In this document: piece after piece, positions 16,510-43,852 of the stretch
Layout of the letters: every line of letters starts with the position of its first letter
Position numbering within the stretch: position 1 is the first letter of the stretch
Program-made: the position numbers and the translations under genes
Assembly (NCBI GenBank): GCA_964491475.1
Contig: CAZBFO010000003.1
Span: 253,293-317,292 of the forward strand
DNA: 64,000 nt
Direction: 5' to 3'
DNA from: an uncultured Gammaproteobacteria bacterium
GTDB taxonomy: Bacteria; Patescibacteriota; Patescibacteriia; SG8-24
The notes under the pieces: model-generated
What the model saw: the letters and a program-made list of their open reading frames with translations, nothing else
Told to the model about the DNA's origin: nothing
Database searches by the model: none

Positions 16510-16666
16510 CGGGAATCTCCAGTTTCTTCGGTAGAAAGGACGTCGGTCAGACCTCACCACAAAAGAGGGCCTTGGTCAATCCTGACGGCCTCGCACTCTT
16601 GATTTTTCGGCCAAATGTGCTACGGTCGCGGCAGGTTCGCTCACAACGCAAGTAAAGGAGAGAAGG

Positions 16667-18034: not shown

Positions 18035-18039
18035 CACAC

Positions 18040-18240: not shown

Positions 18241-18241
18241 C

Positions 18242-18841: not shown

Positions 18842-18955
18842 ACTGATTGAGGATAACTGTGCGTGGCTGTCAGCGCGAATGAAAGACGCGCTGATTTTTT
18901 GAGCGAAACGAGCATAATAAAATCAAGCATTTTACGGAGTAATCCACATCACCTT

Positions 18956-18985
18956 TTGGAGGTGGAAGGGGTCTTGCTCTATAAT
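18956..18985 (+). promoter_or_regulatory. candidate promoter of the giant surface-protein gene (-35 TTGGAG, 18-nt spacer, -10 TATAAT)
   Basis: TTGGAG at 18956-18961 and TATAAT at 18980-18985, about 30 nt upstream of the ATG at 19016. Confidence 0.35.
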
Positions 18986-19015
18986 AGGCGTGTACTCATT
19001 TTTCGCGCCAAGTTC

Positions 19016-22000
19016 ATGCACTTTTGGCGGAACATTTTCCGAAAGCTGCTGTCGCTTGCGATAGGCGTCAGTTTTGTGTTTTTCGGTTTGGCGTCGGCGG
19101 CGAATGCGGCTGTCGGCGTGCCGAAGATTTTGAGCCACCAGGGTCGTCTCCTGGACGCCTCGCAGAACTTGCTCGGCGGTGCGGGCACGAACTACTGTTT
19201 CCGGTTCTCGCTGTACGACGACGCCGCCGTCGGCGGTCCTGACGTCCAGCTGTGGCCGGCCGGTGCGCCGTCGACCATGACGGTCAACGTCAAGAACGGC
19301 GTCTACAACGTCGGCGTCGGTGACGTGGCCGCCGGCGGCGACCTGCTCGACTACGACTTCCAGTCCGGCGATGCCGCCTACCTGAACATCGAGGTGGCCA
19401 ACAGCGTCGCCGGTTCGTGCGTCGGCGTGATCTCGTTCGAGAACCTTTCGCCTCGCCAGCGCGTCATGTCCGCAGGCTACGCCATCAACTCCGACACCGT
19501 CGACGGTTTCCATGCCAAGCAGTCAGCTGACGGCAACTTCATCCCGGCCCTGACCTCCGGCAACCTCATTCTGGGCGCCACCAATCCGCAGATCAACTCC
19601 ACCGGTGCCAACGCGCTGGTCCTCCAGGGCGGCGCCGCGACTGGCGACGTCCAGTTCTTCTCGTCACTGAACAAGCTGACCTCGGCCGGCGACCTGACCG
19701 TGGCCGGTACGGTGACCAACGCCGGCGTGATCATCAACGGCGCGACCACCGACATCAAGACGGGAGCAAACGAGGACTTGGCTCTCGACGCCTCGGGCAC
19801 GGGCAACATCGTCTTCGTGGGCGTGGACTGCTCCGGTTACGCCAACGGCGGCAAGCTGACCACCAACGCTTCGGGCGTGGTCACTTGCGCCAACGACGAC
19901 AGCACGTCTGGCGGCGGCACGGTTACCAGCATCGATGGCAGCGGCGGCACCACCGGTCTTACGTTTAGCGGCGGTCCGGTGACCACTTCGGGCACGCTGA
20001 CGTTGGGCGGCACGCTGGGTGCGGCCAACGGCGGTACCGGTCTGACCTCTTTCACCGTCGGTGACATCCTTTACGCTTCCGGTCCCACGACCTTCTCCAA
20101 GCTTGGCATCGGCTCTGCCGGCCAGGTGTTGAAGGTGGCAGGCGGCATTCCGACCTGGGGTACGGACAACAACACTACTTATACGGCGGGTACCGGCATC
20201 TCCATCAGCCTCGGCAATGTCATCTCGAATACTGGCGTGGTTTCGGAAGCGGACACCTTGGCGACGGTCACCGGCCGCGGCGCGACCACTTCTACGGCTT
20301 CTTCCTTCAACGGCGGCGCTTCGGTGCGCGGTCTGACGGTCGACTCCGCGACCGTCACCAACGATAAGATTTTGGTCAGCATCACCACCGTCGGCGGCGC
20401 CTCTTTCAACGGCACCATTACCAACGCCGACCTTACCGCCGCTCGTACCTACACGCTGCCCGACGTCACCGGCACCTTTATCGTTACGGGATCGGCTGCA
20501 GGCGGCGATTTGACCGGCACCTATCCGAATCCGACCATCGCAGCAGATGCCGTCGCTCTCGGTACCGACACCACGGGCAACTATGTGGCGACCGTTTCGG
20601 GCGGAGGTCCCATTTCCGTGAGCGGTACGGGTGAAGGCGCGGCTGTAACGGTTTCCTGTCCGACCTGTCTGGTTACGGGCGGTTCGCTTTGGACGCTTGC
20701 GGCCTCGGCCGGTTCCGATTCGACCATCTCGCAGGGCGACACCGCGACCTTCGCTGCGGGTTCCAGCAAGGTGACCACGACGAACGACGGCGCCGGCACC
20801 GTCTCTATCGACGTGGCCGAGGCCAATTTGAACTTGAACAACATCGGCGGCAGCCTCGACCTCTCCACCCAGACCACCGGCACCATCAGCCTGACCACCC
20901 AGGTGACCGGCGTCCTGCCTATCGCCAATGGCGGCACCAACGGCTCGTCGTTCACCACCAACACGCTGACGTACTTCGACGGCACGTCGATCGTTTCTAC
21001 CGGCATCAACCCGTCGAGCGTGGTGACCACCACTAACGTCAGCTCCAATGCCGTCACCTCGGTGACCGCGGGCAATGGCCTCACGGGCGGCGGCGGACCG
21101 GGCGCGATCACCGTCCATGTCGGCGCGGGCAACGGCATCGCCGTGGCAGCCAACGACGTCTCGGTTGCCGTCACTTCCAGCGGGACCACCGCCACGACCT
21201 CGTCGAACTCCGGCATCGAGTCCACCTCCACGGGCATCCGCCTGCTGGGCGGCTGCACTGGCGGTGAGATTCTGAAGTGGAACTCCGGCACGAGCACTTG
21301 GGACTGCTCTGCGGATTCGACTGCCGGTACGCTGACCGCACGCGAAACTGACGGCTCGCCGTCACTGGCAGCCACTACTATAGAGTTTGGCCCCACCAGC
21401 AGCTCCGATGATGAATTCGTCGTCACCAATGAGGGTTCCGGCGTCGCCCGCGTGCGCACGGGCACCAAGATCCCGCGCACTGACGTCGCGGCGACAGTCA
21501 CCGGCGGCTGGACTTTCAATTCGGCAACCTCCTTTACCTCGACCGTCGACGCTTCCGGTGCGACCTTCCTCGGCGCCACGCCCCTCATCTTTGAGGGCGG
21601 CACTGTCGACGCGTTCAAGACCGCCTTCAACATCACCGATCCGACTGCATCCAACACCATCACTTTCCCTGACGCTTCCGGTACGGTGGCCGTTTCGGCT
21701 TCGGGTCCGATTTCTTTGAGCGCGGCAGGCAACATCTCCTGTCCGACCTGTCTGGTGAGCGGCAGTTCGTTGTGGACCTCTGCCGGTGACGTCGGTTCGT
21801 TTGCGGTTTCGCAGGGCGGCACCGCCACGTTCGCAGGCGGCCTCGGCATCGACACTTCCGCAGCCGGTTCTACGGTGACCATTGCGGTAGATGAATCCGC
21901 CCTCGACCTCGCCAACATCGGCGGGTTCCTGGACCTTTCGACCCAGACCACCGGCACCATCAGCCTGACCACCCAGGTCTCGGGCGTCCTCCCGATCGCC

Positions 22001-25000
22001 AACGGCGGCACCAACAACACTTCCTTCACTGCCAACCGGCTGACGTACTTCGACGGCACCAAGATCGCCTCGACCTCGATCGATCCGGCCAACGTGCTCG
22101 TCTCTGGCGGCAGCCTGTACACTTTGGCCGCCACCAGCGGTTCGAACTCCACCATCAGCCAGGGAGGCACGGCGACCATCGCTGCGGGTACCGACATCAG
22201 CACGACGGGCAACGGCAGCGGCACCGTCACGATTGCTGACACCTCGACGCTCTCGAGCGTAACCGGCCGCGGTGCCTCGACCTCGACCGCCGTCTCCCTG
22301 AACGGCGGCGCCACGGTCCGCGGCCTGACGGTCGACTCGGCCACGGCCACCGAGGACCGCATCCTCACGAGCATCGCCGCCACCGGAGCGGCCCGCTTCG
22401 ACGGCACGATCACCAACGCCGACCTGACCGCAGCCCGCACCTGGACGCTCCCGAACGCCAGCGGCACCTTCGCGGTGTCGGCTTCCGCGCCCATCTCGCT
22501 CTCGGCGGCGGGCAACGTCTCCTGCCCGACCTGCCTCACTTCCGGCAGCACCGTGTTCACCCTCGCCGCCACCTCCGGCAGCAGCCAGGCGCTCGCCTCC
22601 GGCGACACCATCACCATCGCGGCCGGCTCCAACGTTACCACCACGGCCGGAGCGACCGACACCGTCACCGTCGCGGTCGTCAGCAACCCCACCTTCACCA
22701 CGGTGACCGCCACCGACGTCGACAACGCCGCCACGTTGAACCTCGGGGCCAGCTCGACCACCGTCAACATCGGCAATCCCTCTTCCACCACCAACATTTA
22801 CGGCACGCTCTCGCTCGCCGGCGACTTCGCGCCGTCGGTCGACAACACCTACGAGCTCGGCACCGCCAGTCTCCGCTGGAAGGACGTCTGGGTCGGACCC
22901 GGCTCGTACAAGCTGTCCTCGACCGCCGGAAACTCCGGTTCGGGCACGGACTACACGCTTGGCAGCCTGTCGTTCAGCGGTACCGACTTGGTGCTCAAGT
23001 CTGACGTCGTCGGTTTGGGTACGCAAGGCTCGCTCCGTCTCACCACGGCCAGCAACTACGGTGTCGTCGTCGGTCCTTCTGGCGAGGTGTCGGTCGGTTT
23101 CGGCGGCAGCAACCTCGGTGCGGGCATCGTCCACACCGACGCTTTCGGCGTGCTCTCAAGCTCGGCGCTCGACCTTACCGCTGAAGTTGGCACCAGCGTC
23201 CTGCCGATCGCCAACGGCGGCACCAACAACACTTCCTTCACGGCCAACCGCCTGACCTACTTTGACGGCACCAAGATCGCTTCGACGACCATTAATCCGG
23301 CCAACGTCTTGCTCTCCGGCGGAAGCCTGTTCACTGCTGCAGCGACATCGGGCTCCAATTCGACCATCTTGCAGGGCGGCACGCTGACGCTCGCCGCAGG
23401 CACCGACATCAGCACGACGGGCAGCGGCTCGGGTACGGTCACGGTCGCCGACACCTCGACCCTGGCCAGCGTCACCGGCCGCGGCGCGACCACTTCCACT
23501 GCCATTACCCTGACTGGCGGCGCGACCATTTCGGGCGGCGTCGACCTTAGCAGCGCCATCTTGGCCGGCACCAACCCATTGGTGTTCGATGGCACTACCG
23601 TCGATGCCAACACGACCGCGCTGTCGTTCGTGGATCCGACCGGCACCAACGTCATCACCTTCCCTGACGCCTCCGGTTACGTGCTGCTTTCGGGCGGAAA
23701 TCTGTTCACGCTGGCCGGTTCCTCTGGCAGCAACTCCACCATCAATCAGGGCGGCACCGCGACCGTCGCCGGTGCTTCCGGCCGCGTTTCCGCCACCGGT
23801 AACGGCAGCGGCACCGTTACCATCGACGTCATCGAGTCCGGTTTGAGCTTGGCCAGCATGGGCGGGTCGCTCGATCTGACCACCCAGGTCTCGGGCGTCC
23901 TGCCGATTGCCAACGGCGGCAGCAACAGCTCCGGTCCGTTCGTCACCGGTGAGCTGCTTTCCTTTGACGGGTCATCGTTCGTCTCCTCGGGCATTTCTGC
24001 GGCCAGCGTCGTCACCTCCGGCACGGCGGCCGGCGGCGACCTTACGGGCTTCTACCCGAACCCGACGGTTGCCGCGAATGCCGTCGCTCTCGGCACGGAC
24101 ACCACCGGTAACTACGTCGCCACCGTTGCCGGTTCCGGCCCGATTTCCGTCGCCGGCTCCGGCGGTGAGAGCGCCAACGTGACCGTTTCCTGCCCGACCT
24201 GCGTCACCACCTCCAGCAGCAACGTTTGGACGCTGTCCGGATCCACCGGTACTTCGACGGCCATCGGCTACGGCGACACCGCCACGGTCGCGGCCGGCTC
24301 CTCCAAGGTCTCTTCGGTCGGCGACGGTGCCGGATCGGTAGCCATCGACGTCGTCGAGGCCAACTTGAACCTCAACAACATCGGCGGCTCGCTGGACCTC
24401 TCCACCCAGACCACCGGCCAGATCGACCTGACCACCCAGGTTACCGGTGTGCTTCCGATTGCCAACGGCGGTACCAATAACACCGGTTTCACCACCAACC
24501 GCCTGGTGTACTTCGACGGTTCGCAGCTGACCTCTACCTCCATCAATCCCACCGATGTCCTTCTGTCCGGCGGCAGCCTCTTCTCAACGGCCGGCAATTC
24601 TGGCACCTCGACCATCTCGCAGGGCGGCACGCTCTCGATTCTCGGCGGCACCGACGTCACTACCACCGACGACGGTTCCGGCAACATCACCGTCGATGAC
24701 ACCTCGACCCTGGCTAGCGTCACCGGCCGCGGCTCGTCGACTTCGACCGCCGTCTCCCTGAACGGCGGCGCCTCGGTCCGCGGACTGACGGTCGACGACG
24801 TCACCGCCACGCACGACCGCATCCTGACCAGCATCGCCGCCACCGGAGCGGTCCGCTTCGACGGCACGATCACCAACGCCGACCTGACCGCAGCCCGCAC
24901 CTGGACGCTCCCGAACGCCAGCGGCACCTTCGCGGTGTCCGCCAGCGCTCCCATCTCGCTCTCGGCAGCCGGCAACATTTCCTGCAGCACCTGTCTCGTC

Positions 25001-28000
25001 TCCGGCGGCAGCCTCTTCAGCAGCCTCGGCGACACCGGTACTTCGTCCATTTCGCAGGGCGGCTCGCTGAAGATCGCCGGCGGCAGCAACATCACCACGT
25101 CCGACAACGGTGCTGGCATCATCACCGTGGCCACGTCGGCGAATCCGAGCTTCACCTCGGTCACTTCCGACACCTTCGACAGCTCCAGCACCACCCTGAA
25201 CCTCGGCCCGACCAACGCCACCACCATCAACATCGGCAACGGCGGATCGACCACCAACATCTTCGGCACGTTGGTGCTCGACGGCGGCTTCAACCCCGCA
25301 GTCGACAACACCTATGACCTCGGTTCCCCGGCGCTTCGCTGGAAGACCGTGTACGTCGGTCCCGGCTCGTATCATCTGACCTCGACCACCGGCACTTCCG
25401 GTTCCGGTGCCAACTACACCGACGGCTCGCTGGCGTTCGGAGGAACCAACCTGAAGCTCGCTACCGCCGCGGTCGGCACCGGCGCGATCGGTTCGTTGCA
25501 GCTCACGACCGGCAGCAACGCCGGGGTGAACGTCGACTCCACGGGCAAGGTCGGCGTCGGTACCGCCTCTCCGACTGCTCTCCTGTCCGTCGGTTCCGCC
25601 TCCGACTTCACCGTTGACAACTCCGGTAACGTCACCGCCTCTGGCGACGCGGCAGTGAACGGCGGCAATCTCACCACGACCGCCTCGACCGGCAATCTTT
25701 TCAGCACCAATGCGACCACCGTCAACCTCGGTGACGCCGCCGATACCGTGAACCTCGCGGGCGGCAGCGGCTCGACCGGTTGTACCATCGATCTCAACGG
25801 TAACTTCAGCTGCACGGGTTCGGTTACCGGCGGCGGCACCGTCGGCGGTTCCGGAGCGCAGTACCACACTGCGGTCTGGGCATCCGCCAACACCCTTGCC
25901 GACGTAGGTCCCGGCACTGCGGGTCAGCTGCTGATTTCCCAGGGCGGTTCGGCCTATCCGGCCTACACCACGGTATCCGGCGACGCGACCATTAACGGAT
26001 CCGGCGTGCTCACCATTTCCGCGAATGCCGTCGCCCTCGGCACCGACACCACCGGCAACTACGTTGCCAGCGTGTCCGCCACCGGGCCGATCTCGATTTC
26101 TGGCACGCCCGGCGAAGGTTGGACTCCCAACGTCTCCTGCCCGACCTGCGTGACCACCAGCAGCACCGGCGTCTGGACCCTGTCCGGCTCCACCGGCTCC
26201 AGCACCTCCATCAACTACGGCGACACCGCCACCGTCGCGGCCGGCTCCTCCAAGGTCTCCGCCGTCGGTAGCGGCACCGGATCGGTGGCCATCGACGTCG
26301 TCGAGGCCAACCTGAACCTCAACAGCATCGGCGGCTCGCTCGACCTGTCGACGCAGACCACCGGTTTCCTTAGCCTCACCACCCAGGTCACCGGCGTCCT
26401 GCCGATCGCCAACGGCGGCACCAACAACACTTCCTTCACGACCAACCGGCTGACGTACTTCGACGGCACCAAGATCGCGTCTACCGCCATCGATCCTTCG
26501 ACGGTGCTGGTTTCCGGCAGCGCGCTGTTCAACTCTGCCGGCGACACGGGCACGTCGAGCGTTTCGCAGGGCGATACGCTTACCTTTGTGGGCGGCACCG
26601 ACGTTTCGACTGCGGATGACGGCGCGCGCAACGTCACCATCAACGACATCTCGACGCTCGCCACGGTCACCGGCCGCGGCGCGACCACTTCTACGGCCGT
26701 CACGTTGACCGGCGGCGCCACCGTCCGCGGCCTGACGGTCGACTCCTCGACGGCCACCAACGACAAGATACTCACCTCCATCACCACTGTCGGCGCAGCG
26801 TCGTTCAATGGCACGATCACCAACGCCGACCTGACCGCCGCCCGCACCTGGACGCTCCCGAACGCGAGCGGCACCTTCGCGGTGTCGGCCTCGGCGCCGA
26901 TCTCGCTCTCGGCCGCGGGCAACATCAGCTGTTCGACCTGCGTCACGACCGGCGGATCGCTGTTCACGCTGGCGGGCTCGACGGGCAGCAACTCGACCAT
27001 CAGCCAGGGCGGCACGGCCACGATCGCCGCGGGCTCGAGCAAGGTGACCGCCGCGGGCAACGGCACGGGCACCGTCTCGATTGACGTCGTCGAGGCCAAC
27101 CTGAACCTCAACAACATCGGCGGCTCGCTCGACCTTTCTACCCAGACCACCGGCACCATCGACCTGACCACCCAGGTCTCGGGCGTCCTCCCGATCGCCA
27201 ACGGCGGCTCCAATGCCGACGGCACCGGCTACACCGCCAACCGCCTCCTGGCCTTCGATGGCACCAGCTTCGTGACCACTTCCATCAACCCCGCCAACGT
27301 CCTGCTCTCCGGCGGCAGCCTCTTCACCAGCCAGGGCGACAGCGGCAGCTCGACCATCAGCCAGGGCGGCACGCTCAAGGTGGCCGGCGGTACTGACGTC
27401 ACGACCTCCGACAGCGGTTCCGGCGTGATTACGGTCAACGACTCTTCGACCCTGGCCAGCGTGACCGGCCGCGGCGCGTCGACCTCCACCGCCTCGTCCT
27501 TCAACGGCGGCGCCACAGTCCGCGGCCTGACGGTCGACTCCGCCACGGCCACCGAGGACCGCATCCTGACAAGCGTCGCCGCCACCGGCGCCGCCCGCTT
27601 CGACGGCACCATCACCAACGCCGACCTGACCGCAGCCCGCACCTGGACGCTCCCGAACGCCAGCGGCACCTTCGCGGTGTCGGCCAGCGCTCCCATTGCG
27701 CTCTCGGCCGCCGGCAACATCAGCTGTTCGACCTGCGTCACCACCGCCACCACGCTCTTCAACTTCGCAGGTACCTCCGGCTCGGCCTCGACCATCACCT
27801 CGGGCGGCACCGCCACCGTCACCGCCGGCACCAACATGACCACCACCGGCAGCGGCGGCTCGGGTTCCGGCGCCGTCACCGTCGCGGTCGTCGCCAACCC
27901 CAGTTTCACCTCGGTCACCTCCGACACCTTCGACAGCTCTTCGACCACCCTGAACCTCGGCCCGACCAACGCCACCACCATCAACATCGGCAACGGCGGA

Positions 28001-31000
28001 TCGACCACCAACATCTACGGCACCCTCTCTCTTGCCGGCGACTTCAGCCCGTCGGTCGACAATACCTACGAGCTCGGCGCCGAGCAGCTCCGCTGGAAGG
28101 ACGTCTGGGTCGGACCCGGCTCGTACAAGCTGTCCTCGACCACCGGCACCTCCGGCTCCGGCACGGACTACACCCTCGGCAGCCTGTCGTTCGGCGGCAC
28201 CAACATGGTCCTGAAGACCGAGGCGGTCGGCGCGGGCGTAACCGGCAGCGTCCAGGTCACCACCGGTTCCAACGTCGGCCTGAACGTCGACTCGACCGGC
28301 AAGGTCGGCATCAACACCGCTTCTCCGTCGGCCGCCTTCGCTGTCGGCACTGGTTCGCCGTTCACCGTCGACAACTCCGGCAACGTCATCACTTCGGGCA
28401 ACGCCACCGTCAACGGTGACACCGCGCTCGGCGACGCCGCAACCGACGGCATCACCCTAACCGGCGAGGTTCGCGGCGCCAGCCCGATTCGCTTCGAGGG
28501 CGCCACCAACGACAACACCTACACGACTATCGCCGTGGTCGATCCGACCGCCTCGCGCACCATCAATCTGCCCAATGCCAGCGGCACCTTCGCCGTGTCG
28601 GCCAGCGCCCCGTTGTCTTTGAGCGCGGCCGGCAACCTGACCTGCAGCACCTGCGTCACCACCAGCAGCACCGGCGTCTGGACCCTGGCCGGCTCCACCG
28701 GCTCCAGCACCTCCATCAACTACGGCGACACCGCCACCGTCGCGGCCGGATCCTCCAAGGTCTCCGCGGTCGGCAGCGGCTCCGGATCGGTGGCCATCGA
28801 CGTCGTCGAGGCCAACCTGAACCTCGCCAACATCGGCGGCTCGCTTGACCTGACCACCCAGGTCACGGGTGTGCTTCCGATCGCCAACGGCGGCACCAAC
28901 AACACTTCCTTCACGACCAACCGGCTGACGTACTTCGACGGCACGTCCATCGCTTCGACGACCATCAATCCCTCGAACGTCCTGCTTTCCGGCGGCAGCC
29001 TCTTCACCGCCGCAGCCACGTCGGGCTCGAGCTCGACCATCTCGCAGGGCGGCACGCTGACCCTTGCGGCTGGCACCGACATTTCCACGACCGGCAACGG
29101 CTCCGGAACCGTCACTGTCGCCGACACCTCGACGCTTGCCACGGTCACCGGCCGCGGCGCAACCACTTCCACTGCGGTCTCGCTGACCGGAGGCGCCACC
29201 GTTCGCGGCGAGACTATCGACACCGCCACCGCAACTGACGACCTTATCGCGGTTTCCGTGACGGCCGGCGGCGCGGCCCGCTTTACCGGCACCGTCACCA
29301 ACGCCGACCTGACCGCCGCCCGCACCTGGACGCTCCCGAACGCCAGCGGCACCTTCGCGGTGTCGGCCAGCGCGCCGATCACCTTGAGTGCGGCAGGCGA
29401 TATCGGCTGTTCGACCTGCCTTACCACCGGCAGCAACATCTTCACGCTGGCCGGCACCTCTGGCTCGAATCAGACGCTTACCAACGGCGACACCATCACC
29501 ATCGCTGCGGGTACCAACATCACCACCACCGGCGGCGCCACCGACACCGTCACCGTGGCCACCGTCGCCAACCCGACCTTCAGCACCTCGGTAACCACGC
29601 CCTCGGTCGATAACGGCGCCTCTGGCATTACCATCGGTTCTGGATCGGGTACCACGACCATCACTTCGTCCAACTGGGGCGTGAGCTCGGCCGGCGCGAT
29701 TTCCGGCCTGACGGGCATCTCCAGCTCCGGCACCGTCACCCTCACCGGCCTGACCGCCAGCCGCTTCGTGACCACCGACGGCTCCTCGAACCTCACGACC
29801 TCGCAGAACTCCGCCGCCCTCTCCGCGACCCTCACCGACGAGACCGGCTCCGGCGCGGCCGTCTTCGGCACCAGCCCGGCCATCACCACCAGCCTGACCA
29901 CCGGATCGGCCAGCTTCGACCTCCTGAACGCCACGGCCACCACCGTCAACTTCGCCGGCGCGGCCACCACGCTGGCCATCGGCGCCGCGACCGGCACCGC
30001 CACCGTCAACAACGCCACGGTGACCCTCGCCAACGCCACCACCGTCAACGTCAACGGCGCCTCGCCGAGCATCGTCACCAGCTCGGCCGGCACCGCCAGC
30101 GTCTTCAACACCAACGCCACCACGCTCAACATGGGCGGCGCGGCCACCACCGTGGCGATCGGCGTCGCGGGAGCCTCCGGCACCATGAACCTCATGGGCG
30201 GCTCCGGCTCCACCGGCTGCACCGTCGACGGCTCCAACGGCAACTTGGCCTGCAGCGGCACAATCACCAGCACCGCCACCTCCGGCAACATCGGCTGGTG
30301 GAACCGCACCGGCACGACCCTTTCGCCCAGCAACTCGGGCGACAACGTCACCACCAGCGGCAACGTCAGCACGACCGGCTCCGGCACCATCACCTCGGCA
30401 GCCTTGCTGACCGCCTCCAACGGCTTCACCCAGACCACCGGCGCAACCAACGTCACCGGCACCTCCGGCTCGATCGCGCTGACCGGCTTCGGTTCCACCT
30501 CCATCACTTCCACCAACAGCGGCAGCAACGCCTTCAGCCTGTCCGACTCCGCGCTCACGACCGCCTCGCTGGCTTCGCTCACGTCGACCAACAACTCGGC
30601 CGCGAATACCGCCTGGTCCGCGGACGTCTTCAACGTCACCAACGCGCAGGGCACCACGGCCGTCAGCACCGGCAGCATCGCCGGCGTCGACGTCCAGTTC
30701 ACGCAAGGCACGACCGTTGCCGGCAACAACGACACCGCGCTGCGCGTGAACCTGGCGCAGAACAATTCGTCGTCGACTGACGCGACCTTGAGCTCGCTGG
30801 TCTCGCTGGCCAACAACGACACCGCCACCGGCAACCAGATCACCGTCACCGACGGCCTGAACATCGCCGGGGCCAACGTCACCAACGGCATCAACCTGTC
30901 GGGCACCTTCGGCACCAACCTGATCACCAGCTCCAACTTCAGCGTGACCCAGGCCGGCCTCGTCACCACCGCCGACGACATCGCCGTGAACGGCGCCGAC

Positions 31001-34000
31001 GTCACCACCACTTCCTCCGGCACCGCCACGCTCTTCAACACCAACGCCACCACGCTGAACGCGGGCGGCGCGGCCACCACGGTCAATGTCGGCATCGCCG
31101 GAGCCAGCGGCACCATGGCCCTGATGGGCGGCTCCGGCTCCACCGGCTGCACCGTCGACGGATCGAACGGCAACTTCACTTGCTCCGGCACAATCACCAG
31201 CACCGCCACCTCCGGCAACCTCGGCTGGTGGAACCGCACGGGCACGACGCTCTCGCCGGTCAACGCCGGCGACAACGTCACCACCACAGGCAACGTCAGC
31301 ACGACCAGCTCGGGCACTATCACTTCGGCCGGTACTTTGACGGCCAGCAACGGCTTCACCCAGACCACCGGAGCCACCAGCGTCACCGGCACCTCCGGCT
31401 CGATCGCGCTCACCGGCTTCGGTTCCACCGCGATCACCAGCACCACCGCCACGGGCAACGTCTTCAACCTTGCTGACACCAGCCTGACCACCGGCACCGG
31501 CTTCCGCTCGGCCACCACCAGCACCGCCACCACCAATACGGCCTTCTCGGCCAACGTCTTCGCGGCCACCTTCGCCCAGGCGACGGCAGCCAACACCTCC
31601 GGCGTCAACGGCCTCGACGTGCAGTGGACCCAGAACCCGACCGTCGCCGGCAACACCAATGAGTCGATGCTGCGCCTGCAGAACCAGCTCGTGAACAGCA
31701 CCACCGACACCAGCGTGGCCAACGGCCTGCTGATCGACAACGCAGACACTTCGGCCACCGGTTCGACGGCCATCACCAACGCCATCAACATCTCCCAGTC
31801 CGGCGGCCTCGCCACGACCGCGGCGTACACCAACTACCTGAACGCCACCAACTGGTCGGTGACCAGCGCGGGCGCGGAGACGCTCGCCTCCGACCTGGCG
31901 GTGAACGGCGGCAACCTCACCTCGTCCGCCACCACCTTCAACCTGCTCAACTCGGGCGTCACCACGCTGAACGAGGGCGGCGCTGCCACCACCGTGGCGA
32001 TCGGCATCGCGGGAGCTTCCGGCACCATGGACCTGATGGGCGGCAGCGGCAGCACCGGCTGCACGATCAACGGCTCCAACGGCAACCTGACCTGCAGCGG
32101 CACCATTTCCGGCACTTTCGCCGTGAAGTGGAGCGACCTGCAGAACCCGACGGCCAACGAGTCGCTGGCGATGGGCGCCAACACTTCGACCTTCACCTAT
32201 AACGCCACCACCGGCGCCGGCGTCAACCTCTACACCCTGGTCGACACCGCCTCGAACACCGGCACCGGCTACATCCTGTCGGCAGAAACGGCGGCCAGCT
32301 CGGCGGCCAAGCCGTTCCGGGTCGTCGCTCGCGCCAACACCATCATCGACACCACCTCCACCGGAGGCGTGACCATCGGTAACGCCACCGCAGCGCAGGC
32401 CGTGACCGTCGACGCGGGCACTGCCACGCTCAACTTCGGCAACTCCAACAACGCCAGGGCCATCAACATCGGCACCGGCACCGCCGTGGACACCATCCAC
32501 ATCGGCGACGGCGGCACGGGCGCCGACGTCATCACCATCGGTTCGAACGTCGCCGGACAGACTTTGGCGCTCGACGCCGGCACCGGCGCCGCGGCCATCA
32601 CCATCGGCAACAGCGCCACCGCCCATGGCATCCAGATCGGCACCGGCGCTGCCGTCCAGACCATCTCGATCGGCTCGACCAATTCGACCTCGGCCACCAC
32701 CGTCAGCGCCGGATCGGGCAACTTGGCCCTGACCGCCACCTCCGGCGGCGTCAACCTGTCGACGACCACCAGCGGCACCATCAACTTCCAGCCGCTCGGC
32801 TCGGGCACCACCGGCATCGTTCAGGTGGGCGCGGGCGGCGCAGGTTCCACCACGCCTGACCTCCTGGCTGTCGACGTGAAGTCGAACGCCGGCGACCCGG
32901 CCACCACCCAGAACGGCTACATGTACTACAACGGCAGCACCAACAAGTTCCGCTGCTACGAGAACGGCGCCTGGAAGGACTGCGACACCAACACCGGTTC
33001 CGCGCCGCGCCTCGACCAGATCATCGCCGCGACCGCCGCCAACACCATCGCCAACGCCAACTTCGCCCAGACTTGGAACTGGGGCACGCTCACGACCCAG
33101 ACCGCCATGACCTTCGGCGGCGGCTCGGCCATGACCACGGGCTCGGTGTTCAACTTGAGCGGCGGCACCTACGTTCACACCGGCACTGTCACCGAGACCG
33201 GCAGCTTGGCCACCTTGAACGTGACCGACTCTTCCTCAAATACGGGCGGCAACCCGGTGACCAACGGCCTGCTGATCACGCCGACGTTCAGCACTACTGC
33301 CAGCGCCGGCACCAAGGTGCTTAACGGCCTCAAGGTCGATCCGACCCTGACCTCCTGCGGTACCACCGCTGGCACCTGCACCTTGAGCGACATCGTGGCC
33401 AACACGCCGGCGCTGACGCAGACCACCACCAACACGATGAACATCAACGCCCTGCAGCTGCCGACGGCGGGCGCGCTGGTGCAGAACACGGCGGCCGGCA
33501 CCATCAACTGGAACGGCCTGACCATGCAGATGCCGAACATCACCCAGACCACCGGCACGGTCACCTCGACCGGCGTGAAGGTCACTGGCGGCACGGTCAC
33601 CTCCGGCACCTCGTATGCCTTCGTTTCGGACAGCAACGCCGGCAACGTAGGCGTCGGCACGCTTACGCCGACGCGCACTTTGGACGTGAACGGCAACATG
33701 GGCGGCAGTTCCGTCACTAGCGCCCAATCGCTGACCAGCACGCAGACGGTGACCGTCTCGACCAAGGCGGTGGCCTTCTACCTGTCCGAAGACTCCACCA
33801 CCACGAACTCCGACGTCGACATCACCTTCAATCTGACCGGCCTGCCCGACGTGGACGGCACCTACGCCTTCTTCTACCTGTCGGCCAAGAAGGGCGTGAC
33901 CACCAACGCGCACCTCACCACCGTCGATGTCAGCATCAACGGCAACGCCATCACCAACGCCCTGGTGAAGAGCTCCACCGCGACCGTCGCCTCGACCATC

Positions 34001-35683
34001 GACCGCAATTTCACCCTCGTCCGCATGAACGGCGCCTGGAGGCTCATCGGTTCGAGCGGCGACGGCACCGGCGGCGTCGGCTCCGGTTCGATTATCAAGT
34101 ACAAGTCCGCTGACCAAAGCAGCGTCACCACGACGCTGGCCAATGACTCCGACATGTTCTGGAACATCGGCGCCAACGAGAACTGGTCGGGATTCTTCGC
34201 TGTCCAAGTATTCTCCAACTCGAACAGCCCTGACTTGAACGTCGCCATCACCGCCCCGTCCGGCGCGACTTGCGACATGAGCTACACGCTTCTGAATACG
34301 CCCTCATCCGGAGCGCAGGCCAATCTGGGTTGCGGCACGCGCTCCGCGCAGATCGCTCTCGGCGCCAACACCGAAAACATCCTCTTCATCAGCGCCAACA
34401 TCAGCAACGGCAGTACTGCCGGCTCGGTCAACCTGCAGTTCTCGCAGGACACCGTTGACGCCACCCATGCGACCATCTTCCGACAGGGTTCCTACACCAA
34501 CGCCTTCCGCTCCACCGGCGCGGACGTCGCCGAAGCCTATTACACCGCCGACAGCAGCATGAATGCCGGCGACGTGGTCGCGCTCGATCCGTCGTTCCGC
34601 GCCGGCGTCCGCAAGACCGCCTCGGCCTACGATGCCGGAACCCTCGGCGTCATCACTAGCATGCCCGGACTGGCGCTTAGCGATCCGCTGCGTCCGCAAC
34701 CGGCCGGTACCCGCACCGTCTTCATGGCCCTTAACGGCCGCGTGCCGGTGAAGGTCAGCGACGAGAGCGGCCCGATTGCCGCCGGTGACTTCCTTGCCGC
34801 GTCTTCGACGCCCGGCGTGGCCATGAAGGCCGCCAAGGCCGGACCGGTCATCGGTCGCGCCCTCACGGACTGGGCCGGCACCGGTACGGGAAGCGTCGAC
34901 ATGATCATCTCGCCCGCGCAGCAGAACGCCATCGTGACGCGCGCTGCCGACCCGACCAAGACCGCCGACCAGATCAACTCGGACATCCTGGCCGCCGTTT
35001 CCGCGCAGACCTACGCGCCCGACCAGAGCACCACCGAGCTGAACGTCGACCGCGTGGTCGCCGGCCTGTCAATCATCTCCGACAAGGGCATCTTCAACGG
35101 CCTGACGGTCGACTCCATCGGTTCGCTGCATGACGCCATCACCCTGGCCTCGGATGCGGTCTTCATCGGCCGCCCGTACTTCAACAGCGACACTGCCGGC
35201 TTTGCGGTCATCACCCCCGGCGACAGCAGCGTCAACGTGACCTTCGACAAGCCCTACGAGACGACTCCCGTGGTCAGCGCCACCTTGTCCTTCGACGGCG
35301 ACGCGCCGAGCGACTGGCAGAACATCCGCTACGTGGTCACCGACAAGTCGGTCAACGGCTTCACCATCCGGATGTACCAGCCGATCGGCCAGGACGTGAA
35401 GTTCAGCTGGATCGCGCTGGCGGTAAAGGACGCGCGCACCGCAAAGTCGACTGGCACGACCGCTTCAGTCAGCGTGCCTGCTCCGAGCGGCACGCCGGCG
35501 GGGGATACGGGCACCGGCGACTCCGGCTCGTTCTCCTCGACGACGACCTCTGACGCAGCTCCTTCGAGCGATGCTTCGTCGTCCGATGCCGGCGCGGCGA
35601 GCGCGCCGGCAGATACGGGCGCCGCTGCGCCCACGTCCGATGCTCCTGCATCCGACGCGTCTGCGCCGAGCGCGACCAACTGA
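19016..35683 (+). CDS. giant secreted repeat protein (about 5,555 aa) with tail-fibre-like Thr/Ser/Gly beta repeats and a C-terminal H-type-lectin-like module
   Basis: Single uninterrupted 16.7-kb reading frame. Signal peptide MHFWRNIFRKLLSLAIGVSFVFFGLASAANA. Dozens of reiterated modules: …LDLSTQTTG.I.LTTQV(S/T)GVLPIANGGTNN…, …ADLTAARTWTLPNASGTFAVSASAPISLSAAGNISC(S/P)TC…, …TGRGA(S/T)TSTA…GGATVRGLTVDSATAT…ILTSIA…. A module NP(S/T)FT.VT…NIGN…T(T)NI(Y/F)GTL.L.G.F.P.VDNTY(E/D)LG…LRWKDVWVGPGSYKLSSTTG recurs three times. The C-terminal part contains NGYMYYNGSTNKFRCYENGAWKDC and ends with VNVTFDKPYETTPVVSATLSFDGD…NGFTIRMYQPIG…SWIALAV followed by an acidic Ala/Ser/Pro-rich tail. Confidence 0.85.
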   Translation: MHFWRNIFRKLLSLAIGVSFVFFGLASAANAAVGVPKILSHQGRLLDASQNLLGGAGTNYCFRFSLYDDAAVGGPDVQLWPAGAPSTMTVNVKNGVYNVGVGDVAAGGDLLDYDFQSGDAAYLNIEVANSVAGSCVGVISFENLSPRQRVMSAGYAINSDTVDGFHAKQSADGNFIPALTSGNLILGATNPQINSTGANALVLQGGAATGDVQFFSSLNKLTSAGDLTVAGTVTNAGVIINGATTDIKTGANEDLALDASGTGNIVFVGVDCSGYANGGKLTTNASGVVTCANDDSTSGGGTVTSIDGSGGTTGLTFSGGPVTTSGTLTLGGTLGAANGGTGLTSFTVGDILYASGPTTFSKLGIGSAGQVLKVAGGIPTWGTDNNTTYTAGTGISISLGNVISNTGVVSEADTLATVTGRGATTSTASSFNGGASVRGLTVDSATVTNDKILVSITTVGGASFNGTITNADLTAARTYTLPDVTGTFIVTGSAAGGDLTGTYPNPTIAADAVALGTDTTGNYVATVSGGGPISVSGTGEGAAVTVSCPTCLVTGGSLWTLAASAGSDSTISQGDTATFAAGSSKVTTTNDGAGTVSIDVAEANLNLNNIGGSLDLSTQTTGTISLTTQVTGVLPIANGGTNGSSFTTNTLTYFDGTSIVSTGINPSSVVTTTNVSSNAVTSVTAGNGLTGGGGPGAITVHVGAGNGIAVAANDVSVAVTSSGTTATTSSNSGIESTSTGIRLLGGCTGGEILKWNSGTSTWDCSADSTAGTLTARETDGSPSLAATTIEFGPTSSSDDEFVVTNEGSGVARVRTGTKIPRTDVAATVTGGWTFNSATSFTSTVDASGATFLGATPLIFEGGTVDAFKTAFNITDPTASNTITFPDASGTVAVSASGPISLSAAGNISCPTCLVSGSSLWTSAGDVGSFAVSQGGTATFAGGLGIDTSAAGSTVTIAVDESALDLANIGGFLDLSTQTTGTISLTTQVSGVLPIANGGTNNTSFTANRLTYFDGTKIASTSIDPANVLVSGGSLYTLAATSGSNSTISQGGTATIAAGTDISTTGNGSGTVTIADTSTLSSVTGRGASTSTAVSLNGGATVRGLTVDSATATEDRILTSIAATGAARFDGTITNADLTAARTWTLPNASGTFAVSASAPISLSAAGNVSCPTCLTSGSTVFTLAATSGSSQALASGDTITIAAGSNVTTTAGATDTVTVAVVSNPTFTTVTATDVDNAATLNLGASSTTVNIGNPSSTTNIYGTLSLAGDFAPSVDNTYELGTASLRWKDVWVGPGSYKLSSTAGNSGSGTDYTLGSLSFSGTDLVLKSDVVGLGTQGSLRLTTASNYGVVVGPSGEVSVGFGGSNLGAGIVHTDAFGVLSSSALDLTAEVGTSVLPIANGGTNNTSFTANRLTYFDGTKIASTTINPANVLLSGGSLFTAAATSGSNSTILQGGTLTLAAGTDISTTGSGSGTVTVADTSTLASVTGRGATTSTAITLTGGATISGGVDLSSAILAGTNPLVFDGTTVDANTTALSFVDPTGTNVITFPDASGYVLLSGGNLFTLAGSSGSNSTINQGGTATVAGASGRVSATGNGSGTVTIDVIESGLSLASMGGSLDLTTQVSGVLPIANGGSNSSGPFVTGELLSFDGSSFVSSGISAASVVTSGTAAGGDLTGFYPNPTVAANAVALGTDTTGNYVATVAGSGPISVAGSGGESANVTVSCPTCVTTSSSNVWTLSGSTGTSTAIGYGDTATVAAGSSKVSSVGDGAGSVAIDVVEANLNLNNIGGSLDLSTQTTGQIDLTTQVTGVLPIANGGTNNTGFTTNRLVYFDGSQLTSTSINPTDVLLSGGSLFSTAGNSGTSTISQGGTLSILGGTDVTTTDDGSGNITVDDTSTLASVTGRGSSTSTAVSLNGGASVRGLTVDDVTATHDRILTSIAATGAVRFDGTITNADLTAARTWTLPNASGTFAVSASAPISLSAAGNISCSTCLVSGGSLFSSLGDTGTSSISQGGSLKIAGGSNITTSDNGAGIITVATSANPSFTSVTSDTFDSSSTTLNLGPTNATTINIGNGGSTTNIFGTLVLDGGFNPAVDNTYDLGSPALRWKTVYVGPGSYHLTSTTGTSGSGANYTDGSLAFGGTNLKLATAAVGTGAIGSLQLTTGSNAGVNVDSTGKVGVGTASPTALLSVGSASDFTVDNSGNVTASGDAAVNGGNLTTTASTGNLFSTNATTVNLGDAADTVNLAGGSGSTGCTIDLNGNFSCTGSVTGGGTVGGSGAQYHTAVWASANTLADVGPGTAGQLLISQGGSAYPAYTTVSGDATINGSGVLTISANAVALGTDTTGNYVASVSATGPISISGTPGEGWTPNVSCPTCVTTSSTGVWTLSGSTGSSTSINYGDTATVAAGSSKVSAVGSGTGSVAIDVVEANLNLNSIGGSLDLSTQTTGFLSLTTQVTGVLPIANGGTNNTSFTTNRLTYFDGTKIASTAIDPSTVLVSGSALFNSAGDTGTSSVSQGDTLTFVGGTDVSTADDGARNVTINDISTLATVTGRGATTSTAVTLTGGATVRGLTVDSSTATNDKILTSITTVGAASFNGTITNADLTAARTWTLPNASGTFAVSASAPISLSAAGNISCSTCVTTGGSLFTLAGSTGSNSTISQGGTATIAAGSSKVTAAGNGTGTVSIDVVEANLNLNNIGGSLDLSTQTTGTIDLTTQVSGVLPIANGGSNADGTGYTANRLLAFDGTSFVTTSINPANVLLSGGSLFTSQGDSGSSTISQGGTLKVAGGTDVTTSDSGSGVITVNDSSTLASVTGRGASTSTASSFNGGATVRGLTVDSATATEDRILTSVAATGAARFDGTITNADLTAARTWTLPNASGTFAVSASAPIALSAAGNISCSTCVTTATTLFNFAGTSGSASTITSGGTATVTAGTNMTTTGSGGSGSGAVTVAVVANPSFTSVTSDTFDSSSTTLNLGPTNATTINIGNGGSTTNIYGTLSLAGDFSPSVDNTYELGAEQLRWKDVWVGPGSYKLSSTTGTSGSGTDYTLGSLSFGGTNMVLKTEAVGAGVTGSVQVTTGSNVGLNVDSTGKVGINTASPSAAFAVGTGSPFTVDNSGNVITSGNATVNGDTALGDAATDGITLTGEVRGASPIRFEGATNDNTYTTIAVVDPTASRTINLPNASGTFAVSASAPLSLSAAGNLTCSTCVTTSSTGVWTLAGSTGSSTSINYGDTATVAAGSSKVSAVGSGSGSVAIDVVEANLNLANIGGSLDLTTQVTGVLPIANGGTNNTSFTTNRLTYFDGTSIASTTINPSNVLLSGGSLFTAAATSGSSSTISQGGTLTLAAGTDISTTGNGSGTVTVADTSTLATVTGRGATTSTAVSLTGGATVRGETIDTATATDDLIAVSVTAGGAARFTGTVTNADLTAARTWTLPNASGTFAVSASAPITLSAAGDIGCSTCLTTGSNIFTLAGTSGSNQTLTNGDTITIAAGTNITTTGGATDTVTVATVANPTFSTSVTTPSVDNGASGITIGSGSGTTTITSSNWGVSSAGAISGLTGISSSGTVTLTGLTASRFVTTDGSSNLTTSQNSAALSATLTDETGSGAAVFGTSPAITTSLTTGSASFDLLNATATTVNFAGAATTLAIGAATGTATVNNATVTLANATTVNVNGASPSIVTSSAGTASVFNTNATTLNMGGAATTVAIGVAGASGTMNLMGGSGSTGCTVDGSNGNLACSGTITSTATSGNIGWWNRTGTTLSPSNSGDNVTTSGNVSTTGSGTITSAALLTASNGFTQTTGATNVTGTSGSIALTGFGSTSITSTNSGSNAFSLSDSALTTASLASLTSTNNSAANTAWSADVFNVTNAQGTTAVSTGSIAGVDVQFTQGTTVAGNNDTALRVNLAQNNSSSTDATLSSLVSLANNDTATGNQITVTDGLNIAGANVTNGINLSGTFGTNLITSSNFSVTQAGLVTTADDIAVNGADVTTTSSGTATLFNTNATTLNAGGAATTVNVGIAGASGTMALMGGSGSTGCTVDGSNGNFTCSGTITSTATSGNLGWWNRTGTTLSPVNAGDNVTTTGNVSTTSSGTITSAGTLTASNGFTQTTGATSVTGTSGSIALTGFGSTAITSTTATGNVFNLADTSLTTGTGFRSATTSTATTNTAFSANVFAATFAQATAANTSGVNGLDVQWTQNPTVAGNTNESMLRLQNQLVNSTTDTSVANGLLIDNADTSATGSTAITNAINISQSGGLATTAAYTNYLNATNWSVTSAGAETLASDLAVNGGNLTSSATTFNLLNSGVTTLNEGGAATTVAIGIAGASGTMDLMGGSGSTGCTINGSNGNLTCSGTISGTFAVKWSDLQNPTANESLAMGANTSTFTYNATTGAGVNLYTLVDTASNTGTGYILSAETAASSAAKPFRVVARANTIIDTTSTGGVTIGNATAAQAVTVDAGTATLNFGNSNNARAINIGTGTAVDTIHIGDGGTGADVITIGSNVAGQTLALDAGTGAAAITIGNSATAHGIQIGTGAAVQTISIGSTNSTSATTVSAGSGNLALTATSGGVNLSTTTSGTINFQPLGSGTTGIVQVGAGGAGSTTPDLLAVDVKSNAGDPATTQNGYMYYNGSTNKFRCYENGAWKDCDTNTGSAPRLDQIIAATAANTIANANFAQTWNWGTLTTQTAMTFGGGSAMTTGSVFNLSGGTYVHTGTVTETGSLATLNVTDSSSNTGGNPVTNGLLITPTFSTTASAGTKVLNGLKVDPTLTSCGTTAGTCTLSDIVANTPALTQTTTNTMNINALQLPTAGALVQNTAAGTINWNGLTMQMPNITQTTGTVTSTGVKVTGGTVTSGTSYAFVSDSNAGNVGVGTLTPTRTLDVNGNMGGSSVTSAQSLTSTQTVTVSTKAVAFYLSEDSTTTNSDVDITFNLTGLPDVDGTYAFFYLSAKKGVTTNAHLTTVDVSINGNAITNALVKSSTATVASTIDRNFTLVRMNGAWRLIGSSGDGTGGVGSGSIIKYKSADQSSVTTTLANDSDMFWNIGANENWSGFFAVQVFSNSNSPDLNVAITAPSGATCDMSYTLLNTPSSGAQANLGCGTRSAQIALGANTENILFISANISNGSTAGSVNLQFSQDTVDATHATIFRQGSYTNAFRSTGADVAEAYYTADSSMNAGDVVALDPSFRAGVRKTASAYDAGTLGVITSMPGLALSDPLRPQPAGTRTVFMALNGRVPVKVSDESGPIAAGDFLAASSTPGVAMKAAKAGPVIGRALTDWAGTGTGSVDMIISPAQQNAIVTRAADPTKTADQINSDILAAVSAQTYAPDQSTTELNVDRVVAGLSIISDKGIFNGLTVDSIGSLHDAITLASDAVFIGRPYFNSDTAGFAVITPGDSSVNVTFDKPYETTPVVSATLSFDGDAPSDWQNIRYVVTDKSVNGFTIRMYQPIGQDVKFSWIALAVKDARTAKSTGTTASVSVPAPSGTPAGDTGTGDSGSFSSTTTSDAAPSSDASSSDAGAASAPADTGAAAPTSDAPASDASAPSATN
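22680..29650 (+). repeat. mosaic coding super-repeats (about 2.5-2.8 kb units built from shorter ~0.6-0.7 kb modules) within the giant gene, with long near-identical DNA stretches
   Basis: For example, 25150-25270 and 27905-28025 are almost identical (…CACCTCGGTCAC(T/C)TCCGACACCTTCGACAGCTC…ACCATCAACATCGGCAACGGCGGATCGACCACCAACATCT…). GCCGACCTGACCGCAGCCCGCACCTGGACGCTCCCGAACGCCAGCGGCACCTTCGCGGTGTCG recurs at about 22425, 24885, 26826, 27625 and 29305. Boundaries are approximate. Confidence 0.6.
30110..32100 (+). repeat. second coding repeat family (three ~0.9-kb units) within the giant gene
   Basis: ATTLN.GGAATTV.IG.AGASGTM.LMGGSGSTGCT(V/I)DGSNGN..CSGTI recurs at about 30115, 31045 and 31955 with identical DNA cores (GGCGGCTCCGGCTCCACCGGCTGCACCGTCGACGG). 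Boundaries are approximate. Confidence 0.55.
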
Positions 35684-35733
35684 TTGACGGCGCGGGATGG
35701 TAGCCGTACCGTTGCACCGTAGAACACCCCTTA

Positions 35734-36162: not shown

Positions 36163-36171
36163 GCAACGCCG

Positions 36172-38691: not shown

Positions 38692-38761
38692 AAGCGCGGC
38701 GCTATGCCGGATGGTGCGGACCGTCCGGCATTTGCTATACTTCCCGTGGATAACAGGCCGC

Positions 38762-43848: not shown

Positions 43849-43852
43849 GGTG

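Follow-up and report, generated by a model that had tools for sequence, protein, structure and literature searches.

A 5,555-residue protein encoded by a patescibacterium is probably a phage-fibre-like surface fibre and is the longest member seen of a large family

A single gene of 16.7 kb, at positions 19016..35683 (+) of a 64,000-nucleotide stretch of contig CAZBFO010000003.1 (assembly GCA_964491475.1; this whole stretch is called the window below), encodes a protein of 5,555 aa, followed by a stop codon at 35681-35683. We conclude that this protein is probably a secreted, trimeric, phage-fibre-like cell-surface fibre, the extreme-length member of a large family in the Patescibacteria. In our best reading, by analogy, it would work most like the MAT (mosaic adhesive trimer) fibres of Bdellovibrio and the chaperone-bearing receptor-binding proteins of phages, and would probably serve in attachment to a host. 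Phage-like fibres on bacterial cells are already known; what is new here is a variant that is very large, of extreme length and equipped with another chaperone.

The gene is real and native to the chromosome. One intact frame runs from 18863 to 35683 (+), a total of 5,606 codons with an ATG at 19016, and since about 2.5% of random codons are stops at 64% GC (our own arithmetic), a frame of this length is not attributable to chance. The same ATG was picked by an independent gene call on a Logan short-read contig from the same organism (SRR12313479_96687; position 5350 of this locus, L001, equals window 19016), and the single complete gene of 5,555 codons that the original prediction had described is thus upheld. 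GC content at third codon positions (GC3) is 0.877 in the giant gene and 0.884 in secA, which argues that the gene is native. The SecA protein encoded in the window shares 83% identity with a protein of 'Candidatus Parcubacteria', 70% with that of Parcubacteria SG8_24 and 60-66% with those of Uhrbacteria, and we therefore consider the host to be a high-GC (64%), Parcubacteria-like patescibacterium, whose proteins are singletons in 90%-identity clusters.

The protein begins with a signal peptide, possibly a signal anchor (aa 1-31; 19016..19108, +), that we read from its sequence, MHFWRNIFRK-LLSLAIGVSFVFFGLA-SAANA/AV, in which a basic n-region and a hydrophobic core are followed by an AxA site with predicted cleavage at ANA/AV. 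This is the sole hydrophobic segment of the 5,555 residues, and the AlphaFold2 model places residues 2-24 in a helix; the classical signal peptide of a secreted protein had been claimed, and these features bear it out. The chain is rich in Thr (17.4%), Gly (13.5%), Ser (12.7%) and Ala (12.0%), which together account for 56% of it, and all 40 of its cysteines are paired, ten of the pairs as CxxC. It closes with a low-complexity Ala/Ser/Thr/Asp/Pro tail (aa 5469-5555; 35420..35680, +); no LPxT[GAS] or NPxTG motif was found anywhere in the protein, and no hydrophobic anchor at its C-terminus.

Directly after the signal peptide lies the domain that defines the family, a beta-sandwich (aa 32-165; 19109..19510, +) modelled with confidence over aa 37-150. 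With this N-terminal domain (N-domain), an exhaustive HMMER search of 1.84 billion representatives of 50%-identity clusters returned 2,970 representatives at E<=1e-30, 38,784 at E<=1e-10 and 67,212 at E<=1e-3, the last and weakest tier being one that may include compositional matches. The domain stands at the protein N-terminus in 150 of the 150 best listed hits. Named hits are Patescibacteria, plus a few outliers with collagen-like shafts (e.g., a Polyangiaceae protein), and no Bdellovibrio name is among them; collagen-like shafts thus occur in some of the relatives that carry this domain. The N-domain profile (A2) had no match in the PDB, and the domain had none in IMG/VR viral contigs, in a search that detects close relatives only.

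The family is also apparent from the other end of the protein. Parts of the last 1,156 residues are shared by 134 relatives, the named ones nearly all Patescibacteria, and the C-terminal block was found at no fewer than (at least) 536 loci in species-representative genomes. Our comparisons of loci (neighbours and lengths) cover the best 80 of these, which are almost all patescibacterial and come from more than 15 candidate phyla. The relatives keep a fixed order, in which a signal peptide and the conserved N-domain are followed by a variable modular shaft, a variable domain and the conserved C-terminal block. Complete relatives are between 754 and 3,429 aa in length, truncated ones extend to 3,987 aa or more, and the 5,555-aa protein is the longest seen. 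We also note that 41 of the 80 related loci are cut within the fibre gene, by a contig end or by the edge of the 10-kb flank; short-read assemblies probably fragment genes of this family systematically, such that their true lengths are under-reported in databases.

No existing family accounts for the protein. Searches of the whole protein against Pfam, NCBIfam and PHROGs gave nothing above threshold, and those of both of its halves against PDB sequences gave no match, in agreement with the claim that it belongs to no named bacterial surface-protein family; weak matches to TIGR03557, RS4NT and Spo7 were rejected as compositional noise. One relative each is named 'tail fiber domain-containing protein' (NCBI) and 'fibronectin-binding autotransporter adhesin' (JGI). 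In the literature that we searched, which is not proof of absence, we found no earlier description of this fibre family in Patescibacteria, and the literature on giant prokaryotic proteins concerns other phyla.

The link to phage fibres comes from the C-terminal block. We modelled this block with AlphaFold from an alignment of 16 sequences (A1), and the model contains three confident beta domains and a disordered linker. A beta-sandwich head (aa 5027-5166; 34094..34513, +) lies directly before a predicted cleavage site and is followed by a domain resembling the auto-chaperone of phi29 gp12 (MEROPS G2-type; aa 5169-5300; 34520..34915, +). After a low-confidence linker (aa 5301-5393; 34916..35194, +; predicted local distance difference test score, pLDDT, <50), whose length differs widely among relatives, comes an H-type-lectin-like beta domain (aa 5394-5468; 35195..35419, +; pLDDT ~90).

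When the family profile was compared with the PDB, its sole match was the C-terminal fragment of phi29 gp12 (3gqh), aligned from residue 1 of that fragment (E 0.43), and the domain at aa 5169-5300 has the fold of the same fragment. Profile alignment with hhalign (E 1e-4, probability 57.7%) laid the segment ADVAEAY on SDFAEYF of gp12, where cleavage falls at S691/D692 and the motif includes E695. By alignment of this junction motif, self-cleavage of the giant protein is predicted at A5169/D5170, with D5170 (34523-34525, +) and E5173 (34532-34534, +) as the corresponding residues. The D, E and Y of the junction are invariant in alignment A1, and DxxE is kept in 112 of the 118 gp12-like domains found in 467 retrieved proteins. 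The exceptions are four domains with an unaligned N-terminal segment, of which three are second copies within a protein, one SxxQ protein, and the protein P0039 (Candidatus Daviesbacteria, 1,639 aa), in which an S74 chaperone with the motif TSDERLK precedes a gp12-like domain that lacks DxxE. P0039, which alone among these proteins has an upstream S74 SDxRLK site, may be viewed as a natural control, and is consistent with DxxE being needed only where the gp12-like domain itself cuts (n=1). As judged from sequence, aa 5169-5300 are thus a homologue of the gp12 auto-chaperone, with a predicted catalytic activity.

This type of domain is shared with phages and can be exchanged within the family. 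The gp12-like domain alone occurs in 14 jumbo phages and 71 IMG/VR contigs; in jumbo phage PA5oct a virion structural protein, confirmed by mass spectrometry, has it at its very C-terminal end, and the gene of that protein adjoins that of the long tail fibre. At the equivalent position, the relatives P0038, P0039 and P0080 carry an S74 chaperone (PF13884, SDxRLK). The segment before the chaperone also varies among relatives, being TNF-like in some and unrelated in others, and the family therefore includes the combination typical of MAT fibres, in which tips vary (some are TNF-like) and an S74 self-cleaving chaperone may be present or absent.

The head of the giant protein is provisionally a TNF/C1q-like trimeric jelly-roll of the kind found at fibre tips. 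Foldseek comparison of the C-terminal model with the PDB gave weak matches (best E 5.7e-3), and fold matches were to C1q, BclA and cyanophage fibre tips, the matched domain of the model not being confirmed. We assigned these matches provisionally to aa 5027-5166, reasoning that on any one domain unrelated folds are not expected to outscore a genuine homologue. A profile of the head domain (A6) found nothing significant in the PDB, the best match being a 'gp76' chain (9zdk_S, E 0.011). In the relative P0001 the head domain is the very end of the protein, and therefore fits a role as distal tip. For the lectin-like domain, PF09458 scored 24.3 bits on a 474-aa fragment, against a gathering cut-off of 24, and 20.5 bits on a 1,955-aa piece; five of the 16 aligned relatives also match, and the precomputed annotation assigns PF09458 to P0019, P0025 and P0080, and SH3_3 to P0019 and P0025. 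PF21882, the model for phage gp53-like fibre C-termini, also matches this domain weakly. Both H-type lectins and gp53-like fibre C-termini are trimer-forming glycan binders.

The remainder of the protein is mostly repetitive. Self-comparison divides the chain into a unique N-terminal part (aa 1-340), a mosaic (aa ~340-3550), a repeat-free segment (aa ~3550-3657), three long repeats (aa ~3658-4582) and a unique C-terminal part of ~1,000 aa. The mosaic shaft (20033..29665, +) is built of three shuffled module types whose copies are 45-80% identical in protein self-comparison: A (~160 aa, 8 copies; CxxC...LPIANGGTN), B (~180 aa, 6 copies; VTGRG...NADLTAAR...SCxTC) and C (~170 aa, 3 copies; DNTYxLG...LRWK). 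The three repeats of ~310 aa (family D9; aa 3658-4582; 29987..32761, +) each contain a Cys-pair loop, GGSGSTGCT...C. They run into a module that is widespread in the family, GAGGAGSTTPDLL..DVKS..GDP..GYMYYN..KFRCYENGAWKDC (aa 4571-4668; 32726..33019, +), which has a Cys pair, is 45-72% identical to sequences in many relatives and is multi-copy in many of them; a unique distal shaft (aa 4669-5026; 33020..34093, +) then leads to the head. The recurring motifs that had been singled out, LPIANGGTNN, DNTY(E/D)LG and SC(S/P)TC, are indeed there in 8, 3 and 8 copies (by motif, LPIANGG 8, SC[SP]TC 8 plus 2 CxxC variants, NADLTAAR 6 and DNTY[ED]LG...LRWK 3). The modules are real, but the dozens of them that had been announced slightly overstate a count of about 20 recognisable modules of four types.

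The module copies differ enough to be separate parts of one coding sequence. At the DNA level they are 60-87% identical, with spacings that are multiples of three and all in frame; the longest exact repeat in the gene is 87 nt, and 78 distinct 55-mers occur more than once. Synonymous divergence (dS) between copies is 0.24-0.77, and the ratio of nonsynonymous to synonymous divergence (dN/dS) is mostly 0.1-0.6, nearing 1 only in some segments. Since the copies are in frame and divergent, with dN/dS mostly of 0.1-0.6 and native GC3, we read the repeats as genuine coding repeats; on sequence evidence the copies appear as old duplications, mostly under purifying selection. An independent assembly agrees with the window without a single mismatch over 13667-20293 (6.6 kb) and ends inside the first module, and a scan of metagenomes for a second assembly of the gene interior returned only other family members. 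Because the sole independent contig ends in the first module, the exact order and copy number of interior modules are without independent confirmation.

The shaft modules recur in other family members, and searches with profiles of the internal repeats (A3, A4 and A5) against the PDB gave only chance matches (dehydrogenases, antibodies). Profile searches on individual modules had been proposed as a check, and those against the PDB detected no relative of solved structure. The resemblance of the motifs to phage tail fibres that had been suggested therefore needs to be relocated: the phage link is real but lies in the C-terminus, and the shaft motifs have no detectable relatives among solved structures. 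In a tblastn search against cultured phages, a shaft super-repeat matched over a single stretch of 55 aa, and the distal shaft (aa 4669-5026) did not match at all. Flavobacterium phage vB_FspM_immuto is the source of this match: one of its virion structural proteins is 53% identical to the stretch (aa 2317-2371; window 25964-26128; ...AVALGTDTTGNYVA.V...GPISISG...), which is the only segment of the shaft with a match in a cultured phage.

We compared the protein with known fibre systems. Bdellovibrio MAT fibres, such as Bd2734, Bd2439 and Bd3182 of Bdellovibrio bacteriovorus, consist of a signal peptide, a conserved beta-rich N-domain of ~130 aa, a trimeric shaft, variable tips that include TNF-like ones, and an optional self-cleaving chaperone; they are displayed on the surface and play a part in how prey is handled (Caulton et al. 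2024, PMC10769870). Both systems are encoded by chromosomal genes that are not phage-borne, both place a beta-rich domain that is conserved and ~130 aa long after the signal peptide (a likeness in architecture), both include a subset with a self-cleaving chaperone of phage type, and both are found in bacteria whose way of life depends on contact with other bacteria. The giant protein differs in its phylum, Patescibacteria, in its phi29-gp12 (G2-type) chaperone where MAT fibres have S74 or none, in the extra lectin-like domain after this chaperone, in shaft modules without detectable similarity to solved fibres, and in being ~5 times longer (the highest MAT residue number cited is 1,151; PMC10769870).

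The pre-neck appendage protein gp12 of phi29 (PDB 3gqh; MEROPS G2; PF11962) likewise carries its chaperone after the fibre or spike body and has the same junction, S/A-D-x-A-E-x-(Y/F), at S691/D692...E695. In contrast to the giant protein, however, gp12 is a virion protein of 854 aa with a beta-helix body and no signal peptide; the giant protein also adds ~255 residues after the chaperone (linker, lectin-like domain and low-complexity tail), and the Pfam model is not significant on it. Fibres and endosialidases of the S74 type (T5 pb1, K1F; PF13884) are similar in having a C-terminal trimerisation chaperone, self-cleavage and an exposed receptor-binding tip, but S74 uses a Ser-Lys dyad in another fold, and the giant protein has no S74 domain. 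Unlike the trimeric heads on stalks of BclA, C1q and the TNF-like lectin PLTL, the giant protein lacks a collagen Gly-X-Y stalk (one is present in some relatives), and there is no sequence similarity to these heads. With H-type lectins (Helix pomatia agglutinin, discoidin; PF09458) it shares a small beta-sandwich near the C-terminus whose score is borderline, at the threshold on the fragment and below it in the longer piece, but here the domain lies after the predicted cleavage site. The giant protein has the defining features neither of LPXTG/sortase proteins, nor of autotransporters or two-partner secretion (TPS) proteins, nor of phage virion fibres.

Taken in order along the chain, these features would allow the following assembly. 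The Sec system would export the chain by means of the N-terminal signal peptide that is seen in the sequence. The N-terminal beta-sandwich would stay next to the cell, held there by a signal anchor that remains uncleaved or by a wall-bound partner to which it docks, e.g., the neighbouring protein with peptidoglycan-binding and FN3-like domains described below. The ~5,000 residues of Thr/Gly/Ser/Ala-rich modules would form a three-chain shaft, in which the regularly spaced CxxC pairs may serve as inter-chain staples or metal sites. Emerging last, the gp12-type chaperone would nucleate folding, trimerise, and then cut at A5169/D5170 by means of D5170 and E5173. The TNF/C1q-like jelly-roll would thereby become the mature distal tip, which may attach to a host or partner cell through a ligand there, probably a glycan, and the H-type-lectin-like domain would belong to a cap that is either removable or retained non-covalently. 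The long tail fibre of T4 extends, by our estimate, ~0.06 nm per residue, and scaling from this value would make the fibre ~0.3 um long, comparable to the size of the cell. Attachment to a host or partner cell, which the original prediction had also proposed, is a reasonable inference from the phylum and from the likeness to Bdellovibrio MAT fibres; the results speak neither for nor against the phage-receptor decoy suggested with it.

Several points weigh against this interpretation. PF11962 (Peptidase_G2) did not match the giant protein at E<=1; it matches three of the 16 aligned relatives weakly (best E 0.0015), and is precomputed in one relative (P0069). The link to phi29 is modest at the sequence level, as seen from the E value of the PDB profile match (0.43) and the hhalign probability (57.7%). 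The lectin-like domain, as well as SH3_3 in P0019 and P0025, lies downstream of the predicted cut, an awkward position if these domains are adhesive, because release of the cap would lose them. Release of the cleaved phi29 chaperone needs ATP, and ATP is absent outside the cell, which makes a release of the phi29 type implausible there. Both structure models are monomeric, and the shaft was modelled at low confidence, such that the trimer is a deduction. Which end of the fibre is cell-proximal is a prediction, as are its expression and surface location. Finally, the interior copy number and order are unconfirmed by a second assembly.

We considered that the same assembly might serve another purpose, as a surface coat or 'hair-like nap' like that of BclA on the Bacillus exosporium, glycosylated and acting as a shield or decoy against phages or predators. 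A Thr/Ser content of 30% would suit heavy O-glycosylation, the fibre family is very abundant, and some N-domain relatives have BclA-like collagen shafts. Nevertheless, we think a coat rather unlikely, based on the variable tips before a conserved chaperone, which are a signature of receptor-binding proteins, on the lectin-like and SH3-type domains present in the family, and on the cost of a 5,555-aa subunit for a bulk coat in a very small genome. It is quite unlikely, in our judgement, that the protein is in part a product of assembly, that is, a real gene whose number or order of modules, and with it the record length, arose from collapse, expansion or the joining of paralogous fibre genes. 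The independent contig does stop inside the first module (window 20293), the interior has no second assembly in the metagenome scan, and the gene contains 78 repeated 55-mers and an exact repeat of 87 nt; furthermore, the gene is cut in 41 of the 80 related loci, and no complete relative is longer than 3,429 aa (truncated ones extend to 3,987 aa or more). In contrast, the frame is unbroken for 5,555 codons, the copies are just 60-87% identical and all in register with it, and dS of 0.24-0.77 with dN/dS mostly <0.6 is what old, selected duplications would show; GC3 is uniform and native, and the N- and C-terminal domains are single-copy and in the canonical order of the family.

Two further explanations assign the gene to familiar classes. 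A divergent monomeric adhesin of the classical beta-helical or repeat kind (an autotransporter or trimeric autotransporter adhesin, an FhaB-like TPS protein, an RTX/Bap-like or an LPXTG-anchored protein) would also be giant, repetitive and secreted, and the JGI label on one relative points the same way, but we find this very improbable: there is no Pfam or NCBIfam domain of the autotransporter, TPS, RTX, Big/Cadherin or YadA type, neither LPXTG nor a C-terminal hydrophobic anchor is present, and the C-terminal modules belong to trimeric fibre systems. To our knowledge, Patescibacteria also lack an outer membrane, which autotransporters and TPS proteins require. We give almost no credence to a phage gene, i.e., the tail-fibre gene of a prophage or tailocin in the chromosome, even though the C-terminal chaperone domain is common to phage virion proteins, one relative bears the NCBI tail-fibre label, and 55 aa of the shaft match a Flavobacterium phage virion protein. 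A Sec signal peptide is present here and absent from virion proteins, codon usage is native, the neighbours are housekeeping genes, no phage structural, packaging or integration genes are found among 10 of them, and PHROGs contains no match to the protein; moreover, IMG/VR matches are confined to the chaperone domain, and the N-domain was not found in viral contigs by a search that detects close relatives only.

If the protein is a surface fibre, as we favour, a broader reading can be put forward tentatively, as a possibility in which we place limited trust. Patescibacteria may have taken over the modules with which phages assemble fibres (self-cleaving chaperones of the G2 and S74 types, tips of the TNF-like and lectin kinds) and set them on an N-terminal anchor domain specific to their lineage, thereby building a hypervariable repertoire of tens of thousands of surface fibres that would be the main determinants of the host cell of an episymbiont. 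The 5,555-aa protein would then be a 'fishing line' of cell length (~0.3 um), with the lectin cap as sensor of first contact and loss of the cap unmasking the TNF-like tip; outside the cell the cap would stay bound, because there is no ATP there to release it.

How the ultra-small, host-dependent Patescibacteria (Candidate Phyla Radiation, CPR) recognise and hold their hosts is largely an open question. In cultivated Saccharibacteria, evidence points to a part for type IV pili and a small number of adhesins in this (PMC10633639). The fibre family described here, which comprises 2,970-67,212 50%-identity clusters depending on the E cut-off and has no Pfam, NCBIfam or PHROG model, may mediate such attachment. 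If these fibres are determinants of host range, they would provide a sequence-based handle for predicting CPR-host pairs and a concrete target for cryo-electron tomography and binding studies, and would represent a reuse of phage assembly modules by cells on a very large scale. D5170, E5173 and the domain boundaries are directly testable predictions.

The rest of the window is ordinary chromosome, encoding SecA, MurB, a Mur ligase, a class A penicillin-binding protein, two S41 peptidases, an amino-acid permease and an FAD oxidoreductase; phage structural, packaging and integration families were looked for among the 10 neighbours, and none was found. There is no DNA similarity between the giant gene and the rest of the 64-kb window. 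We rejected the gene as a target of a diversity-generating retroelement, as no template-repeat-like similarity exists in the window, a reverse transcriptase not having been searched for specifically.

Just downstream lies a gene for a secreted protein of 839 aa (36172..38691, +), in which a conserved motif at the N-terminus is followed by an FN3-like domain and then by three PG_binding_1 (Pfam) domains. Homologues of its first ~185 aa, which contain the motif 'SSxxF...GGG...SSxxF...GQ', are encoded just downstream of the fibre gene in 11 of the 80 Patescibacteria loci, from several lineages (L003, L005, L006, L013, L022, L049, L062, L064, L076, L080 and L082). Elsewhere the paired homologues have FN3, Big_6 and a C-terminal dockerin, whereas the copy in the window ends in the three PG_binding_1 domains. 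This pairing suggests, by inference only, that the fibre gene and its FN3 neighbour form a functional pair, perhaps a fibre plus a wall-bound adaptor or anchor.

Other features of the region were noted in passing. A secreted protein of 1,237 aa (40143-43856, -) contains a domain of ~120 aa (its aa 65-185) that is 45% identical to aa 386-507 of the peptidoglycan-binding neighbour, and both also match a stretch that lies upstream of the fibre gene in locus L007. Two tandem genes for C-terminal processing peptidases of S41 type (CtpB-like, PDZ-containing; 13928-15199, - and 15310-16560, -) lie 2.5-5 kb upstream of the giant gene; this pair is not conserved beside the fibre gene in the 80 related loci.

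The intergenic region directly upstream of the giant gene (18842..19015, +) is AT-rich, with a GC content of 42-45% at 18800-19000, as had been claimed. The candidate promoter placed there fared less well: a perfect TATAAT lies at ~18977, but a scan for the sigma-70 consensus near the gene found 0 promoters against 0.5 expected. No terminator was found near the gene either, and Rfam and tRNA scans of the whole window gave no matches. A sharp AT-rich island (GC 25%) at 18050-18149, more extreme than the dip directly before the giant gene, lies upstream of an open reading frame of 239 aa (18122-18841) that has no family match.

Two properties of the giant gene could mislead annotation. Very long antisense open reading frames lie inside it (up to 1,573 aa, e.g., 28457-33178, -); they are the expected by-products of a GC-rich, stop-poor composition, and are not for annotation as genes. 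GC skew is strongly and persistently negative (to -0.24) across the gene, at 20000-40000, and the cumulative skew falls by ~1.5; Thr and Ala codons rich in C, ACC and GCC among them, are the probable cause, and the pattern could pass for a replication-related shift in skew.

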